A stretch of DNA of 64,000 bases, taken from NCBI GenBank assembly GCA_963812135.1, contig CAWETU010000001.1, positions 1,056,001 to 1,120,000 of the forward strand, written 5' to 3'. Origin of the DNA: Vulcanimicrobiota bacterium. GTDB taxonomy: Bacteria; Vulcanimicrobiota; Vulcanimicrobiia; Eremiobacterales; Eremiobacteraceae. Shown here one piece after another: positions 18,679 through 60,758 of this stretch; position 1 is the first letter of the stretch; the number at the start of each line of letters is the position of its first letter. Position numbers and translations under genes: made by a program. The notes beneath the pieces are model-generated. The model worked only from the letters and a program-made list of their open reading frames with translations. It did not search any database and was not told where the DNA came from.

Positions 18679-18753
<75 letters not shown>

Positions 18754-23222: not shown

Positions 23223-23575
23223 GGGGGCGTCACGGTCTCGACGGGCTGTGCCCTGGCGAAGGAAGCAAGCGGAGTTCCGAGCTCTCCTTAAACGATCGGA
23301 CAACGTATAAACGCGAATAGCGAATACGCACTAGCAGCCTAATCTAGGCTAGCTACGGCCGCGGGGCAACGGCGCCGGCACGGGCCCGCGGACGTCACAC
23401 AAGACGGCTTACGATTCCGGGTGTCTCGACGGAGTCGGACAATGAATCGGGACTGGCGGCCGCGGTAATCGAGCTCGGAGAGTACGCGGTCGCGAGAAAA
23501 AAACCCGAGCTAAGCTTGTAGATGCCTTCGTGGGGGTCTTCTCGGACACCGGTTCAACTCCGGTCGCCTCCACCA
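23223..23575 (+). ncRNA. ssrA: tmRNA; proteolysis tag (A)ANSEYALAA at 23313-23342
   Basis: 5' GGGGGCG pairs with 3' CGCCTCC-ACCA including the G3:U wobble; T-arm GGTTCAACTCC; tag ORF ends ...YALAA-TAA; 353 nt; TAAAAT at 23206. Confidence 0.95.
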
Positions 23576-56325: not shown

Positions 56326-57158
56326 ACGCCGACGTTGAAATCGCGCAGCGCGGCGTTGAGCGACGTTTTTTTGTCGGTCGATTCAGAACGCTCGCCGATG
56401 ATCAGCGCGCAGGGCGTGCCGAACAATCCACCCGGAAAGGTCTTGGATTGCATGCCGGGGATCACGACGGCTCGCTCGGGTACTTCGCCCTTGTACACTT
56501 TCGCCGGCTGTTGCATGACATCGATGATCGGCGTCGAGGCGGTGAGCACCGTGCCCGCGCCCAAGACCGCTTCCTTGCCGACGTACACGCCTTCGACCAC
56601 CACGCAGCGCGATCCGATGAAAGCGCCATCGTCGATGATCACCGGCCGCGCGCTCGGCGGTTCCAGCACGCCACCGATGCCGACGCCGCCCGACAAGTGC
56701 ACGTTCGTGCCGATCTGCGCGCAGCTACCGACGGTCGCCCACGTGTCGACCATCGTCCCTTCGCCCACATATGCGCCGATGTTGATAAACGACGGCATCA
56801 ACACGGTGTTTGCCGCGAGATACGCGCCGAAACGCACGGCTGCAGGCGGCACGATGCGGATGCTCGTGCGGTTCTCCCACATCGATTTGAGCGGGATCTT
56901 GTCGTAGAAGCGCATCGGCCCGGCTTCGCTCGGCTCGGCGTTGTGAGCCGCGAAATACAATTCGATGGCCTGCTTGACCCAGTCGTTGACCACCCATCCG
57001 TTGTCGGTGGGTTCGGCCGCGCGCAACCAGCCGTTGTCGAGCGCACCGACGGTTCTTTCGACGGCTTTACGCACCGGCGCCGTCGAGAGCAGCGCGCGAT
57101 CTTCGTACGCCGCATGAATAGTCGCCGCGAGTTGTTCGCGATCGAGATTGACTGCCAT
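56322..57158 (-). CDS. dapD: Tetrahydrodipicolinate N-succinyltransferase
   Basis: W.VN.WVKQAI, DKIPLK, TMVDTWATVGSCAQIG, GGVLEP. Confidence 0.95.
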   Translation of the reverse strand: MAVNLDREQLAATIHAAYEDRALLSTAPVRKAVERTVGALDNGWLRAAEPTDNGWVVNDWVKQAIELYFAAHNAEPSEAGPMRFYDKIPLKSMWENRTSIRIVPPAAVRFGAYLAANTVLMPSFINIGAYVGEGTMVDTWATVGSCAQIGTNVHLSGGVGIGGVLEPPSARPVIIDDGAFIGSRCVVVEGVYVGKEAVLGAGTVLTASTPIIDVMQQPAKVYKGEVPERAVVIPGMQSKTFPGGLFGTPCALIIGERSESTDKKTSLNAALRDFNVGV

Positions 57159-57207
57159 CGGATGAGAGGTTAGCGGCACACGCCCCCGGGGCCTCGTCCC
57201 GCGCTCG

Positions 57208-57237
57208 TTGACACCCCTCGCGAACGCATAGTATAAT
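57208..57237 (+). promoter_or_regulatory. Consensus sigma70 promoter for tRNA-Gln/tRNA-Glu
   Basis: TTGACA-N18-TATAAT ending 16 bp before tRNA-Gln. Confidence 0.85.
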
Positions 57238-57253
57238 TTGTATTCGCGTTCGT

Positions 57254-57329
57254 TCCCGGGTGGTGTAACTGGTAACACGCCTGACTCTGAATCAGGAGAC
57301 TCGAGGTTCGAAACCTTGCCCGGGAGCCA
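57254..57329 (+). tRNA. tRNA-Gln (anticodon CTG)
   Basis: TCCCGGG/CCCGGGA acceptor, CCTGA-CTCTGAA-TCAGG anticodon arm, GGTTCGAAACC, encoded CCA. Confidence 0.95.
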
Positions 57330-57371
57330 TCCTCCTCAGAACGCGTGGGTCGATTATTGTCGACCGCTCAT

Positions 57372-57447
57372 GGCCCCATCGTCTAGAGGCCTAGGACGCC
57401 GCCCTCTCAAGGCGGAGACAGGGATTCGAATTCCCTTGGGGCTACCA
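57372..57447 (+). tRNA. tRNA-Glu (anticodon CTC)
   Basis: GGCCCCA/TGGGGCT acceptor, CCGCC-CTCTCAA-GGCGG anticodon arm, encoded CCA. Confidence 0.95.
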
Positions 57448-57481
57448 CTTGCAGATAACGAATCGAATGGCGAAATAGAAC

Positions 57482-57781
57482 ATGCGCACTTTCGATTTAT
57501 TCCTCGCGGCTGTGCTTACCCTGGTCGTCGTCCTCACCGCGGTGAACTATTTCTATTATCAGCATGAGATAGAGATGATCAATCGGGCGATCATAGCACT
57601 CGATCCCACCCATCCGCCGACTCCAGCAGACGAGGCAATGCTCGAGAAGATGGTTCGGGAGCATAGGAATGTACCGGGCGAGTATCGTTGGCTCTTTGGG
57701 CGTGAGGCAATTATCGTTTTCCTGGCGCTTGGGGCTATCGCCCCTCGGGTCCGCCTGAAGCAGCGCACGGCTACTACCTAA
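57482..57781 (+). CDS. Small 2-TM hypothetical protein (cassette 1)
   Basis: 99-aa ORF with two hydrophobic segments filling the space between tRNA-Glu and the first repeat. Confidence 0.6.
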   Translation: MRTFDLFLAAVLTLVVVLTAVNYFYYQHEIEMINRAIIALDPTHPPTPADEAMLEKMVREHRNVPGEYRWLFGREAIIVFLALGAIAPRVRLKQRTATT

Positions 57782-57846
57782 ACTCTAGACATCTTATATA
57801 GAAGGGGTGGGACTCTTCGGAAAACGTCCCACCATGGGGCCGCCGA

Positions 57847-57893
57847 GCCCTCTCAAGGCGGAGACAGGGATTCGAATTTCCTTGGGGCTACCA
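57847..57893 (+). repeat. Direct repeat of the tRNA-Glu 3' half (att-like), copy 1
   Basis: 46/47 identical to 57401-57447 (GCCCTCTCAAGGCGG...GGGGCTACCA). Confidence 0.93.
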
Positions 57894-57899
57894 ATCCGA

Positions 57900-58250
57900 A
57901 TGCCTGCTTCTCAGATTGCAGCGGTCAAGTGGACTCTGCGAGTCCTCGTTGCGGTTGCCGCGCCTATTTTAGCGTACTTCCTAACGTGGTATGTTGCAGG
58001 CTTTACGATCAGTCCGAATATGGCGCCTCCCGGTCAACCCGAGTTCAGGGAGGGCACACCCGCCACTATCTTTGTATACGCCACCCTCTTCCCGTTTACG
58101 TTGGTTGCCTTTCTCGTCTTTGGGCTTCAGGTGGTGAGCCGGAAACCGTGGACTCCGCAATCAATCTTGTTGAGCATTTTTCTCCCGTTCTGCGCGGTCG
58201 GATTTTTCTGGCTTTTCTTATACCTCGCGTACCACGCAAGAATGTTCTAG
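57900..58250 (+). CDS. Small 3-TM hypothetical protein (cassette 2)
   Basis: ORF from ATG at 57900 (or GTG at 57929 region) with three hydrophobic segments between the two repeats. Confidence 0.6.
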   Translation: MPASQIAAVKWTLRVLVAVAAPILAYFLTWYVAGFTISPNMAPPGQPEFREGTPATIFVYATLFPFTLVAFLVFGLQVVSRKPWTPQSILLSIFLPFCAVGFFWLFLYLAYHARMF

Positions 58251-58321
58251 GTCCAAACCCCACCCAATAGGTAGAGTGGGGACAGGCTCTAAACCTTATG
58301 ATACGGAGCCCGCTTGGCACT

Positions 58322-58366
58322 TCTCAAGGCGGAGAACGGGGATTTCAATTCCCCTGGGGGCTACCA
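58322..58366 (+). repeat. Degenerate direct repeat of the tRNA-Glu 3' half, copy 2
   Basis: TCTCAAGGCGGAGA (14 identical nt), then GGGGATTTCAATTCCCC and GGGGCTACCA. Confidence 0.85.
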
Positions 58367-58417
58367 ACTGCCAATTCCCGCCAGGGTTTTGGCTCTTTCT
58401 ATAGCGTAGATTTTCAA

Positions 58418-58942
58418 ATGGACAAAGCGAGTCGTTTAGAAGAACGCCGCAAACTGTTTGAGGAACACGGTCACCTTTCGTACTTGGCAGAAGTGCAAAA
58501 ACGCGAGGGCGGGTTCGGCGTGGTGGTGCGTGCGGTCTCGCAGGTTGAAGAATTACTCGACGTTGCTCTTAAGAAGCACGAGAAGTGGAGCGTTGTCAAA
58601 GACCTTGCCGAGGACGTAGATAGCAAGATTCGTTTGGCGCGGGCGTTGGACATAATTGACTCTGACATGTACGCAGTCATGCAAGCACTGAGGCGTCTTC
58701 GCAATGAAGTTTCACACGAATGGAATGCCGTCGTTGACGAAAAACGAGTAAACGAATTAATGAACGCTATTCCATCCCACGTAAGAGACAGCACTAAACA
58801 ATTAGTGGGAGTCCTCCAGCGGCTTCCTCTTAGTGAGGAGGATAAAAGGGAACTTTGGTTAGTCGAATTGATGATTGTTGTGGCGACGGCGGTCATGACC
58901 GTAAACGGGAAATGGCTCCCGCTGGGGCCTGCGGTCACTTAA
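58418..58942 (+). CDS. HEPN-superfamily (MtlR-like) protein
   Basis: KI.LA.AL.II...Y.....LRRLRNEVSH (RxxxxH); AT-rich (23/60 GC in 58741-58800). Confidence 0.65.
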   Translation: MDKASRLEERRKLFEEHGHLSYLAEVQKREGGFGVVVRAVSQVEELLDVALKKHEKWSVVKDLAEDVDSKIRLARALDIIDSDMYAVMQALRRLRNEVSHEWNAVVDEKRVNELMNAIPSHVRDSTKQLVGVLQRLPLSEEDKRELWLVELMIVVATAVMTVNGKWLPLGPAVT

Positions 58943-58997
58943 AGATTGCAGAAGATGAAGCGAGAGGTGCCTGCTTGTACGTCGCCTCAGAATTGAG

Positions 58998-59213
58998 CTA
59001 GTAGCCTTCCGGCTCGTCTCCCTCTGGGTCGAGGTCGGCTTCGAGTGCATCGGGATTGTTCGCGTTCGGGTTCGCCGTTCGGCTCGAGGGCGAGCCCTGG
59101 CTTGGATTGACCCTGTCATACACGACGGACGCGGCGCTGCTCAGGACTCGAGCCGCACCCCAAGCCAACGCGATGATGATCGCGAAGAAGAGGAGACCCA
59201 TAAGTAGGCCCAT
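58998..59213 (-). CDS. Small hypothetical protein (N-terminal TM, acidic tail)
   Basis: 71-aa ORF abutting the stop of the DUF1801 gene. Confidence 0.45.
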   Translation of the reverse strand: MGLLMGLLFFAIIIALAWGAARVLSSAASVVYDRVNPSQGSPSSRTANPNANNPDALEADLDPEGDEPEGY

Positions 59214-59214
59214 T

Positions 59215-59589
59215 TCATTTACGCGTGCGTTTTTCGTTCTGCGCGACGCGCGCCTTCACTAGCTTCTTCACAAGAGTGGCAGATAAGGGCTTGTCCACGG
59301 GAAAGCGGATCGTGCCCTTCGATGAGTCGAGGTTCTTGAGATCCTTCTTGAACTTTCTCATGACGGCCATGCTCATCGGGAAGAAACTGCAATGGTGCGT
59401 AAACGCGGCGAATGCCACCAGCCCCCCTTTGTATCGAAAGGTTGGGATCTGATAGCTGATAGTCTCCGTTGCTTCCTTTGGCGCGGCGGACCTGATCGCC
59501 ACACGAATCTTCTTTAGAGTGCCGCGGGCCGGTTCCGGAACCCCCGCGATGTACTGGTCGACTCCGGATTTCGTATTTTTCTTGCGCAT
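59215..59589 (-). CDS. DUF1801/YdhG-like protein
   Basis: VD.YI, R.AI...AP.A.E.ISYQIP, SKGTIRFP. Confidence 0.82.
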   Translation of the reverse strand: MRKKNTKSGVDQYIAGVPEPARGTLKKIRVAIRSAAPKEATETISYQIPTFRYKGGLVAFAAFTHHCSFFPMSMAVMRKFKKDLKNLDSSKGTIRFPVDKPLSATLVKKLVKARVAQNEKRTRK

Positions 59590-59711
59590 GACGCGGAGCG
59601 TTCCGCTCAACCCGAACAACCCCTTGGCGGCGGAGCCTGTCGGCGTAAAGCAGTATACGTTCGGGGCAAAGGCAAACTAGACAGGGTCTTACTCCATAAC
59701 TGAGGAGTTCT

Positions 59712-60758
59712 TTGCAAGCAGTCATACTCGTCGGCGGTGAGGGGACGCGGCTTCGGCCGCTGACCTACGCCTTGCCCAAACCCATGGCGCCGCTGCTCGG
59801 CCGGCCCTTCATCGGCTGGATCATCGAGCGCCTGCGCGTCGCCGGCGTGGACGACGTGATCCTGTCATGTTGCTACCTGCCCGAGGCGATCGAGTCGCAT
59901 TTCGGCGATGGCCGCTCGCATGGCGTTCGCTTGCATTACGTCCACGAAGAGCAGCCGCTCGGCACCGCCGGCGCCATCAAGAACGCGGTCGACCACATCG
60001 ATGGAACGATCTTCGTTTGCAACGGCGATATCCTCACGGGCGTCGACCTGCGCGCGTTGCTGACGGCGCACCGCAAGAACAACGCAGTGGCGACGATCCA
60101 CACGCGCCCGGTCGACGATCCAAGCCAGTTCGGCGTCGTCGAGACGGACGCGGATGGCAACGTGCGCCGTTTTGTCGAAAAGCCCAAGCCCGGCGAGACG
60201 TCCGCGCGCGACATCAACGCGGGGACATATGTGCTCGAGCCCGAGGCGATCGAAGCGATTCCGGCAGGACGGCCCGTCTCGATCGAACGCGAGACCTATC
60301 CGCTGCTCATCGACTCGACGCACCGCGTGTTCGCGGTCTCGACCAACGATTATTGGATCGACGTGGGGCGTCCGGACACGTACCGCCAAGCGCACCGAGA
60401 CATCCTCGACGGCCGCTACGCGCATCCGGTCGGCGTGGAACTCGCGCCCGGCATTTGGTCCGCTGACGGCGCGCCACTGCCGCGCGATGTCAGCGCGCGC
60501 GCTCCGCTGTATATCGGGGCGGGCGCCACCATCGGCGCGGGCGTGACGCTCGAACCGTATTCGGTGATCTACGACGGCGGCGCGATCGGCGACGGCGCAA
60601 CCATCGGCGACGCGATCCTGTGGCCGGGTTGCAGTGTCGGCGAACACGGCACCGTGCGCGGCGCGATTCTCGGACTGGACGTCGCAGTGGAACCGAAGGC
60701 TGCCGTGCCGGCGGGCTCGGTGCTCGGCCGCGGTGAGCGGGTGACCGCCGCCCGCTGA
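59712..60758 (+). CDS. NDP-sugar pyrophosphorylase (mannose-1-phosphate guanylyltransferase-like)
   Basis: ILVGGEGTRLRPLT...PKP, EEQPLGTAG, FVEKP, hexapeptide repeats. Confidence 0.88.
   Translation: MQAVILVGGEGTRLRPLTYALPKPMAPLLGRPFIGWIIERLRVAGVDDVILSCCYLPEAIESHFGDGRSHGVRLHYVHEEQPLGTAGAIKNAVDHIDGTIFVCNGDILTGVDLRALLTAHRKNNAVATIHTRPVDDPSQFGVVETDADGNVRRFVEKPKPGETSARDINAGTYVLEPEAIEAIPAGRPVSIERETYPLLIDSTHRVFAVSTNDYWIDVGRPDTYRQAHRDILDGRYAHPVGVELAPGIWSADGAPLPRDVSARAPLYIGAGATIGAGVTLEPYSVIYDGGAIGDGATIGDAILWPGCSVGEHGTVRGAILGLDVAVEPKAAVPAGSVLGRGERVTAAR

Follow-up and report, generated by a model that had tools for sequence, protein, structure and literature searches.

Tandem single-gene units bounded by tRNA-Glu 3' halves in a Vulcanimicrobiota genome: candidate miniature integrative elements without an integrase

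The stretch of DNA analysed here, which we call the window, comprises 64,000 nucleotides of a Vulcanimicrobiota bacterium (assembly GCA_963812135.1, contig CAWETU010000001.1, positions 1,056,001 to 1,120,000). Behind its tRNA-Glu(CTC) gene lie two tandem units of 446 and 473 bp, each made of one open reading frame (ORF) and a displaced copy of the 3' half of that tRNA. Comparison with related genomes marks the locus as a site-specific integration hotspot with tandem accretion, a known process, and we are very confident that integration at the tRNA and tandem accretion underlie the array. With more reserve, we lean towards the view that the units are miniature non-autonomous integrative elements, inserted by an integrase acting in trans. 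That integrative elements enter tRNA genes and accrete in tandem is textbook knowledge, whereas true miniature non-autonomous forms of integrative elements, comparable to the miniature inverted-repeat derivatives (MITEs) of transposons or to integron cassettes, are not established.

The layout that had been predicted from the letters alone was recovered by ARAGORN, Rfam and a repeat search: an intact tRNA-Glu(CTC), the two units and their two tRNA 3'-half copies (Table 1). The repeated block corresponds to tRNA-Glu positions 30-76; the 47-nt direct repeat is identical at 46 of 47 positions (98%) between the gene (57401-57447) and copy 1, and the start-to-start spacings of the tRNA-half repeats are 446 and 471-473. 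Copy 2 was scored by a tRNA-half profile at 58321-58366 (E=9.7e-12), and the profile scan revealed no further decayed copies beyond it or after the third ORF. A 19-nt core motif is found three times in forward orientation at the locus and once in the other tRNA-Glu gene of the 2.79-Mb genome, while the reversed motif, used as a control, gave 0 occurrences. Because the motif is confined to tRNA-Glu sites and its control is silent, the repeat is not a product of chance. The tRNA-Glu(CTC) gene itself is 100% identical across most of the family.

All three ORFs lie on the + strand and start 34, 6 and 51 nt past a CCA, as had been noted before. The proportion of G and C (GC) is 0.48-0.58 over 57300-58950, vs 0.60-0.72 in the flanks. 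A single + strand promoter-like site was found within 57100-59300, upstream of the tRNA-Gln/tRNA-Glu pair, and behind copy 2 stands a terminator-like hairpin that is probably the displaced end of the tRNA operon; in one relative (G001) a similar hairpin directly follows the intact tRNA. Rfam recognised tRNA-Gln(CTG) and tRNA-Glu(CTC) between 57000 and 59400 and no further RNA. Folding of arm plus copy (arms are the segments that precede the displaced copies) did not differ from shuffles (z=-0.34 and -0.74), and the notion that the two together form a tRNA-like RNA was rejected on both counts.

Table 1. Features of the tRNA-Glu(CTC) locus in window coordinates.
Feature	Position	Strand	Basis or remark
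Promoter-like site TTGACA-18-TATAAT of the tRNA-Gln/tRNA-Glu operon	57208..57237	+	12/12 match; consensus match only
tRNA-Gln(CTG)	57254..57329	+	ARAGORN, Rfam
tRNA-Glu(CTC), intact, integration target	57372..57447	+	ARAGORN, Rfam
Unit 1, 446 bp: 34-nt spacer, ORF1, arm A, displaced tRNA half	57448..57893	+	
ORF1, 99 aa, N-terminal membrane-like segment	57482..57781	+	
Arm A: hairpin GGTGGGAC...GTCCCACC (57806-57833), then ...GGCCGCCGA abutting the crossover	57782..57846	+	
Copy 1 of tRNA-Glu positions 30-76, 46/47	57847..57893	+	repeat alignment, profile
Unit 2, 473 bp: 6-nt spacer, ORF2, arm B, displaced tRNA half	57894..58366	+	
ORF2, 116 aa, hydrophobic	57900..58250	+	
Arm B: hairpin CCCCAC...GTGGGG (58258-58281) and spacer	58251..58318	+	
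Copy 2, diverged tRNA half	58319..58366	+	repeat alignment, profile
Terminator-like hairpin GCCAA..TTGGC and T-run	58370..58403	+	fold z=-3.43; 0/200 shuffles as stable
ORF3, 174 aa, HEPN-like (DUF4145-like), RNxxxH motif; low-GC islet	58418..58942	+	
71-aa hydrophobic ORF, no assigned family	58998..59213	-	
DUF1801 gene, right flank kept within the genus	59215..59619	-	
NDP-sugar (nucleotidyl) transferase, right anchor of the hotspot, kept family-wide	59712..60758	+	

The other tRNA-Glu gene of the genus records both states of such a site. The interval from tRNA-Glu(TTC) to tRNA-Val(TAC) is a second hotspot, with one-ORF units in the genome under study (G000; C1:106244-107777, outside the window) and in the relatives G006 and G001 (loci L053, L093 and L094). 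In four genomes with empty alleles (G002, G003, G004 and G005) the tRNA gene ends in ...GGGGGTACCA, followed by a conserved native terminator hairpin. In the three occupied alleles (G000, G006 and G001) the intact gene ends in ...GGGGGTAAA instead, followed by a different, shared, element-borne terminator hairpin, and the native CCA and terminator are found displaced downstream by 713 bp (G006), 805 bp (G001) and 570+894 bp (G000), behind a tRNA-half copy. These paired alleles bear the signature of site-specific integration, in which the insert supplies a new 3' half and displaces the old one. At its element-borne end ...GGGGGTAAA, the tRNA-Glu(TTC) of G000 has no encoded CCA, which the displaced native copy retains; because the encoded CCA is lost, this tRNA would need CCA addition.

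Sixteen relatives from the same family were compared at the tRNA-Glu(CTC) locus. The flanks are conserved (DapD on the left; the nucleotidyl transferase and a UvrD-like helicase on the right), whereas the interval between tRNA and transferase is different in every one of the 16, ranging from 144 bp to >4 kb, so that the locus is anything but invariant. It is effectively empty in G012 (144 bp) and G014 (247 bp). Two extra tRNA-half copies delimit units of 874 and 558 bp in G001 and of 354 and 797 bp in G003; G006 has one extra copy and a 747-bp unit, G005 one partial copy, and G011, G008 and G023 weaker tRNA-half fragments. In the loci examined by profile scan, every extra copy (15/15) lies on the strand of the tRNA. 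None of the three window ORFs recurs in the tRNA-Glu(CTC) loci of the 16 relatives, and in 0 of 16 do they appear as the ends of integrase-bearing islands. In G007 the assembly breaks inside tRNA-Glu(CTC), contig C26 ending and C10 starting within the gene, which would fit a repeat or population heterogeneity at the hotspot.

Comparisons among units draw on seven genomes of a single genus, related to each other and so not independent. We count 12 units of 354-894 bp at the two tRNA-Glu loci of G000, G001, G003, G005 and G006, each with one apparently intact ORF (12/12), so that the variable one-ORF units of similar size that the original prediction had looked to relatives for do exist. The longest ORF is co-oriented with the tRNA in 11 of the 12 and starts 5-353 nt past the left boundary as called; ten of these 11 start no more than 153 nt from the end of the tRNA or copy, and for three the distance is at most 7 nt. 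By eye, with no predictor run, the cargo mostly carries an N-terminal hydrophobic or signal-like segment.

Three observations order the insertions. A DUF4760 orthologue (87-92% identical in amino acids) is separated from the intact tRNA by 29 nt in G006, by one unit in G005, and by two units and another ORF in G001. At tRNA-Glu(TTC) the native terminator is the distal one. Finally, a homologue of ORF1 from other metagenomes (P0010; 78% identical) starts with the conceptual translation of the tRNA-Glu 3' half and of the same spacer as in the window; because the residues before the tRNA half mismatch the intact tRNA (an in-frame stop falls there), we place this gene behind a partial copy. New inserts thus land beside the intact tRNA, in line with the earlier suggestion that the newest unit is the one next to it. 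The accompanying idea that repeat divergence rises with distance serves as a rough clock and as no more than that, since a copy comes in together with the unit on its right. Copy 2 has about nine changes relative to tRNA-Glu, including, as read from the alignment, a paired T-stem change from AGGGA/TCCCT to GGGGA/TCCCC; this could reflect an origin from a different functional tRNA-Glu and not plain decay, or a coincidence. The DUF4760 family (PF15956) is itself strongly expanded: G000 has 24 matches and the seven genomes of the genus have 13-29 each, vs none in 14 control genomes. Several copies are clustered in tandem or neighbour a tRNA, and the family is also a recurrent cargo of tRNA-Glu units.

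We give next to no credence to an assembly artefact or a simple local duplication of the tRNA region. The genome is metagenome-derived, short repeats can mislead assemblers, and the public contigs leave 57492-57987 uncovered. Yet the same architecture, with different content, recurs in independent assemblies of at least six genomes and at two loci, and a metagenome contig (L119) reproduces the array of G006. Twenty public runs match the locus, all as Logan contigs and none of them RNA (best word share 0.49). Contigs of the runs X1-X4 have a depth of 2-5 and no joints, and one of X1, which may be the source sample, bridges copy 2 with 0 differences over 58138-58442. A duplication is also at odds with the content, the repeats being separated by mutually unrelated units.

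The displaced copies are preceded by 45-65 nt that sort into arm types common to units with unrelated cargo. Arm A has a hairpin of the GGGTGGG/CCCACC type followed by ...GGCCGCCGA, which adjoins GCCCTYTCAAGG; it is present in unit 1 of the window, in G006 at both tRNA-Glu loci and in G001, and a similar, decayed version stands, by eye, before copy 2 of the TTC array of G000. Arm B is common to unit 2 of the window and unit 2 of G003 (76.7% over 120 nt of arm and copy), and arm C to G001 and G005 (80% over 92 nt). Among 385 genomes of the class, arm A with up to two mismatches was found at four sites in three genomes of the genus (g1), and outside it at a single site with two mismatches (G292) that is probably due to chance. 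Allowing three mismatches added 14 matches (19 in all) vs about 18 for the reversed control, and we treat these as noise, bar a match in G011 inside its tRNA-Glu interval. Public genome contigs gave 0 matches to arm A and metagenome contigs two, one being the G006 locus (contig L119) and the other a chance match. The word pair of the arm A hairpin has eight occurrences genome-wide, too few for a repeat of the repetitive extragenic palindromic (REP) kind, and that candidate was dropped.

In mechanistic terms, the 3' half of tRNA-Glu(CTC) would serve integrative elements as their attachment site. Two of them, single-gene and 446 and 473 bp long, would have been inserted successively, through a crossover of the tyrosine-integrase type in the anticodon stem-loop, each bringing its own tRNA 3' half to complete the gene; the 3' half of the present tRNA-Glu(CTC) would then have been delivered by unit 1. 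Each insertion would shift the previous 3' half, and ultimately the operon terminator, downstream. This is essentially how the original prediction had explained the repeats, and the alleles and arms described above support it. We take the arms to be the element-side (P) arms of a lambda-type model, the tRNA half to the left of a unit having presumably come with that unit. Units would then form small families set by their conserved ends (arm A, arm B), with unrelated cargo, at both tRNA-Glu genes of the genus. Two direct GTTAGGGTGGCA repeats soon after the tRNA in unit 1 of G001 (L036, oriented 2860-2890) look like integrase arm-type sites on the left arm of an element. The position of ORF1 and ORF2, downstream of the tRNA operon promoter and upstream of the displaced terminator, makes it probable that they are transcribed with the tRNAs. 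At present the array is probably static.

No recombinase was found within the window, in agreement with the original prediction, and the one unlinked tyrosine recombinase that a genome-wide search brought up is a 315-aa Xer-like protein (C1:1527056), the single PF00589 match of a genome that is 98% complete in 6 contigs; it lies ~407 kb from the locus. Resolvase, Recombinase and Phage_int_SAM_3 had 0 matches in the same genome, and serine recombinases were accordingly discarded as movers. None of 120 ORFs of at least 100 aa from the tRNA-Glu(CTC) intervals of the 16 relatives is an integrase. Hidden integrase fragments in the arrays were rejected by a tblastn search with six recombinases, which found no integrase debris (best match within a tRNA-bounded unit E=0.83), other gene fragments not being searched for. 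Across 32 genomes of the family, a tally that takes in the unpublished genomes G010, G013 and G016, 31 have a PF00589 match (G030 has none), 28 of them one strong Xer-like match, and extra phage-type integrases are sparse. In G005 and G006 integrases adjoin tRNA-Thr. A 17-kb element at tRNA-Glu(TTC) of G025 encodes a 391-aa integrase and carries arm-type AAGGTATCCT repeats, so that integrases for this class of site exist in the family, although neither in G000 nor in these arrays. Because neither the units nor the genome encode one, we infer that the integrase was supplied in trans, by an autonomous relative or a passing element.

The same signature extends beyond tRNA-Glu. Scanning all 47 tRNAs of G000 for downstream copies of their 3' ends, the genome-wide search that the original prediction had called for, uncovered co-oriented copies at five others: Glu(TTC), Ala(CGC), Val(GAC), Asp(GTC, four copies) and Pro(GGG). 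The tRNA-Asp gene (C1 1291033-1291109), for instance, is followed by copies at 1295662, 1300101, 1302164 and 1307242. No integrase is present among 105 ORFs of at least 110 aa in these tRNA arrays. The genome thus has one tyrosine recombinase yet at least six tRNA-bounded island arrays. The cargo of the larger units includes LuxR-STAND NTPases, VIT1, MgtC, an AI-2E transporter, HicB, MarR and an RND efflux pump.

The tRNA-Glu units may, on the other hand, never have moved at their present size. Integrase-bearing islands or prophages at tRNA-Glu could have been deleted in place to their att-proximal ends plus one selected gene, leaving scars like the decayed elements described below or retained 'morons'; we regard this as a possible origin, though not as the one to expect. 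Accretion followed by decay is a documented route to such tandems (PMC5704250; bioRxiv 10.1101/2020.12.28.424599). Several findings weigh against units that entered as small elements, and most of them fit decay. Broken or truncated integrases lie inside the tRNA-Asp arrays of G005 and G006, so ordinary islands do decay in this lineage. At tRNA-Ala(CGC), Val(GAC), Asp and Pro(GGG) of G000 the units are 2-7 kb long and multi-gene, again without an integrase, and the 17-kb element of G025 is a full element of the parent type at tRNA-Glu(TTC). Two units (G003 unit 1 and G001 unit 2) have no arm, their ORF stop abutting a shorter copy (36 and 26 nt), and look like the result of trimming or of a different integrase class. 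The arms could be partly vertical within the genus, since orthologous intergenic DNA has about the same identity as their 75-86%. Unit 2 may have a left edge that cuts into an older gene, because a homologue of ORF2 from other metagenomes (P0011; 92% identical) has a different N-terminus and a different upstream sequence, without a tRNA-derived peptide, which leaves room for in-place trimming. A circle of ~450 bp is, besides, small for an integrase that requires arm sites and DNA bending, and the low-depth public contigs showed neither excision products nor circle junctions nor any polymorphism in unit number.

Decay accounts less well for the uniformity of the units. All 12 are small, with one apparently intact ORF and no integrase debris, and ORF starts are clustered near the left boundary, which would be rare if deletion endpoints were random. 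Both ends are retained across unrelated cargo and at two target genes, and neither the 385 class genomes nor the metagenome scan yielded a large element carrying one of the arms A, B and C. The TTC-type units, moreover, bring a replacement terminator for the tRNA. These features favour miniature elements, which we would expect to have entered at about their present size. What is unusual is the combination of sub-kilobase, single-gene units free of integrase debris, conserved ends, and a host with one Xer-like recombinase and no serine recombinase. In a limited literature search we found no published description of sub-kilobase, single-gene, integrase-less, tRNA-bounded units with conserved arms, a result too narrow to establish their absence.

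Among the closest described systems are the cis-mobilizable elements (CIMEs), presented as decayed integrative and conjugative elements (ICEs) or integrative and mobilizable elements (IMEs), together with a three-step accretion scheme (PMC5704250). Likenesses with that account are integration at the tRNA 3' end, attL and attR as direct repeats, integration genes lost or absent, the newer element beside the target and possible mobilisation by a related integrase (PMC5704250). Our units, like CIMEs, have no integration or transfer genes and retain attL and attR. They differ in being 354-894 bp long, with exactly one ORF, no integrase debris and arms conserved across unrelated cargo, and because of these traits they look like a family of miniature elements and not like individual wrecks. 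As for descent from an ICE or IME, neither integrase debris nor a same-armed parent was found, which neither shows nor excludes decay.

Tycheposons of Prochlorococcus share the partial-tRNA flanks, the successive integrations that push older elements inward, the scattered partial tRNAs and remnants, and hosts with few or no other mobile elements (bioRxiv 10.1101/2020.12.28.424599). As defined in that report, they carry their own tyrosine recombinase, with 937 integrase-carrying elements and also fragmented integrases (bioRxiv 10.1101/2020.12.28.424599). Here, in contrast, no unit has a recombinase, the units are far smaller, and the host belongs to an unrelated high-GC soil lineage. A classic tRNA island or prophage such as the G025 element resembles the units in its tRNA-Glu target, in an identity block that begins in the anticodon stem or the T-arm and reaches the 3' end, and in the arm-type repeats of some units (GTTAGGGTGGCA, twice, in G001 unit 1). 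The G025 element differs by its 17 kb, its 391-aa integrase (an element-encoded integrase being present there and in none of the units) and its AAGGTATCCT arms, which are unrelated to arms A, B and C.

Integron arrays consist of co-oriented, tightly packed and mostly promoterless single-gene units, each with a recombination site at its end, behind one strong upstream promoter, the newest unit standing at the insertion point. The tRNA-Glu arrays are alike in being rows of co-oriented, closely set single-gene units of about 0.4-0.9 kb, mostly without promoter-like sites, each with a recombination site at its end, downstream of one strong predicted promoter and with the newest unit beside the tRNA. 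The integron-like system that the original prediction had proposed was nevertheless not borne out. There is no IntI, attI or attC: instead of an adjacent intI the genome has its one distant PF00589 gene, and the units are bounded by copies of tRNA-Glu positions 30-76 (no attC model having been used), the site being a tRNA 3' half with an upstream arm. The crossover varies and no platform recombinase is linked. A common promoter is suggested by consensus matches only, namely the 12/12 site upstream of tRNA-Gln, the lack of any other + strand site and the hairpin after copy 2.

We judge it very unlikely that the locus is an active platform of the integron kind, in which the tRNA-Glu 3' half and the arm hairpin would form the cassette site of a host recombinase (Xer-like or unrecognised) and the tRNA promoter would act as cassette promoter (Pc). 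The ORFs are indeed co-oriented and close-packed, with ORF2 6 nt past a CCA and without a promoter-like site of its own; there is a strong promoter upstream and a terminator after the last copy, and the cargo is mostly small membrane or secreted proteins and genes of expanded families. The Xer-like gene is also the sole site-specific recombinase detected, and 28 of the 32 family genomes have one strong match of this type. However, no recombinase is linked to the arrays and nothing ties Xer to tRNA sites. Sequence identity starts at tRNA position 30, 33, 37, 41 or 51 depending on the unit, and such varying crossovers fit several integrases better than one platform enzyme. The folds of arm plus copy are not above shuffles, the terminator that TTC-type units place right after the tRNA argues against read-through there, and classic integrases for the tRNA-Glu site do occur in the family (G025).

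A broader version, in which sub-kilobase cassettes would be captured serially into tRNA-Glu genes, expressed from the tRNA operon promoter and moved by a recombinase encoded outside the cassettes, possibly the Xer-like enzyme of the host, strikes us as unlikely too, though less so. Its attachment module would consist of the arm hairpin, ...GGCCGCCGA and the tRNA-Glu 3' half. If true, this tRNA-anchored gene-cassette system would be a functional analogue of the integron built on a tRNA gene, and a route by which a lineage nearly devoid of mobile-element genes could sample small genes of the envelope or defence type.

Returning to the miniature-element interpretation, the arrays offer a compact test case: 12 units below 0.9 kb, three end types, single-gene cargo, clean alleles and hosts nearly without recombinases. 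Units that are mobile at this size would be the smallest integrase-dependent carriers of cargo described, and would account for the spread of small membrane, secreted and HEPN-type genes in a lineage without the usual vehicles. Immobile units would still represent an uncommonly neat reduction of islands to single genes within a tRNA transcription unit.

As for the cargo of the window, neither ORF1 nor ORF2 matched any Pfam or PADLOC family. ORF2 looks multi-membrane-spanning by eye, no predictor having been run, and an ESM Atlas look-up stayed below recognition level. Its GC content at third codon positions (GC3) is 0.63, whereas three other ORFs listed as overlapping have 0.43-0.55.

The earlier description needs one correction: ORF3 does not count as a third unit of the array, because it lies behind the terminator-like hairpin and no tRNA copy follows it. 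It scores 22.3 bits against DUF4145 (cut-off 23.1). HMMER retrieved six relatives from 1.84 billion representatives (56%, 44% and about 30% identity), two of which exceed the cut-off. Residues R95, N96 and H100 are invariant in the seven aligned sequences and match the Rx4-6H motif of HEPN proteins (Rx4H here), by which we class ORF3 as a HEPN-type protein on its sequence. A word search recovered only ORF3 itself, and a relatives search from three sequences found one distant relative, in a metagenome-assembled genome (MAG) of Solirubrobacterales with no tRNA nearby. ORF3 and the 71-aa ORF (region 58367-59213) together hold the position of a methyladenine glycosylase gene (Adenine_glyco) in G006, G005 and G001; the right edge of this replacement has no tRNA copy (compared with L038, 3756-4277 in oriented coordinates, L036 and L040). 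Elsewhere in the window are a transfer-messenger RNA (tmRNA) gene (23223-23575; tag peptide ANSEYALAA) and a tRNA-Pro(CGG) at 18679-18753.

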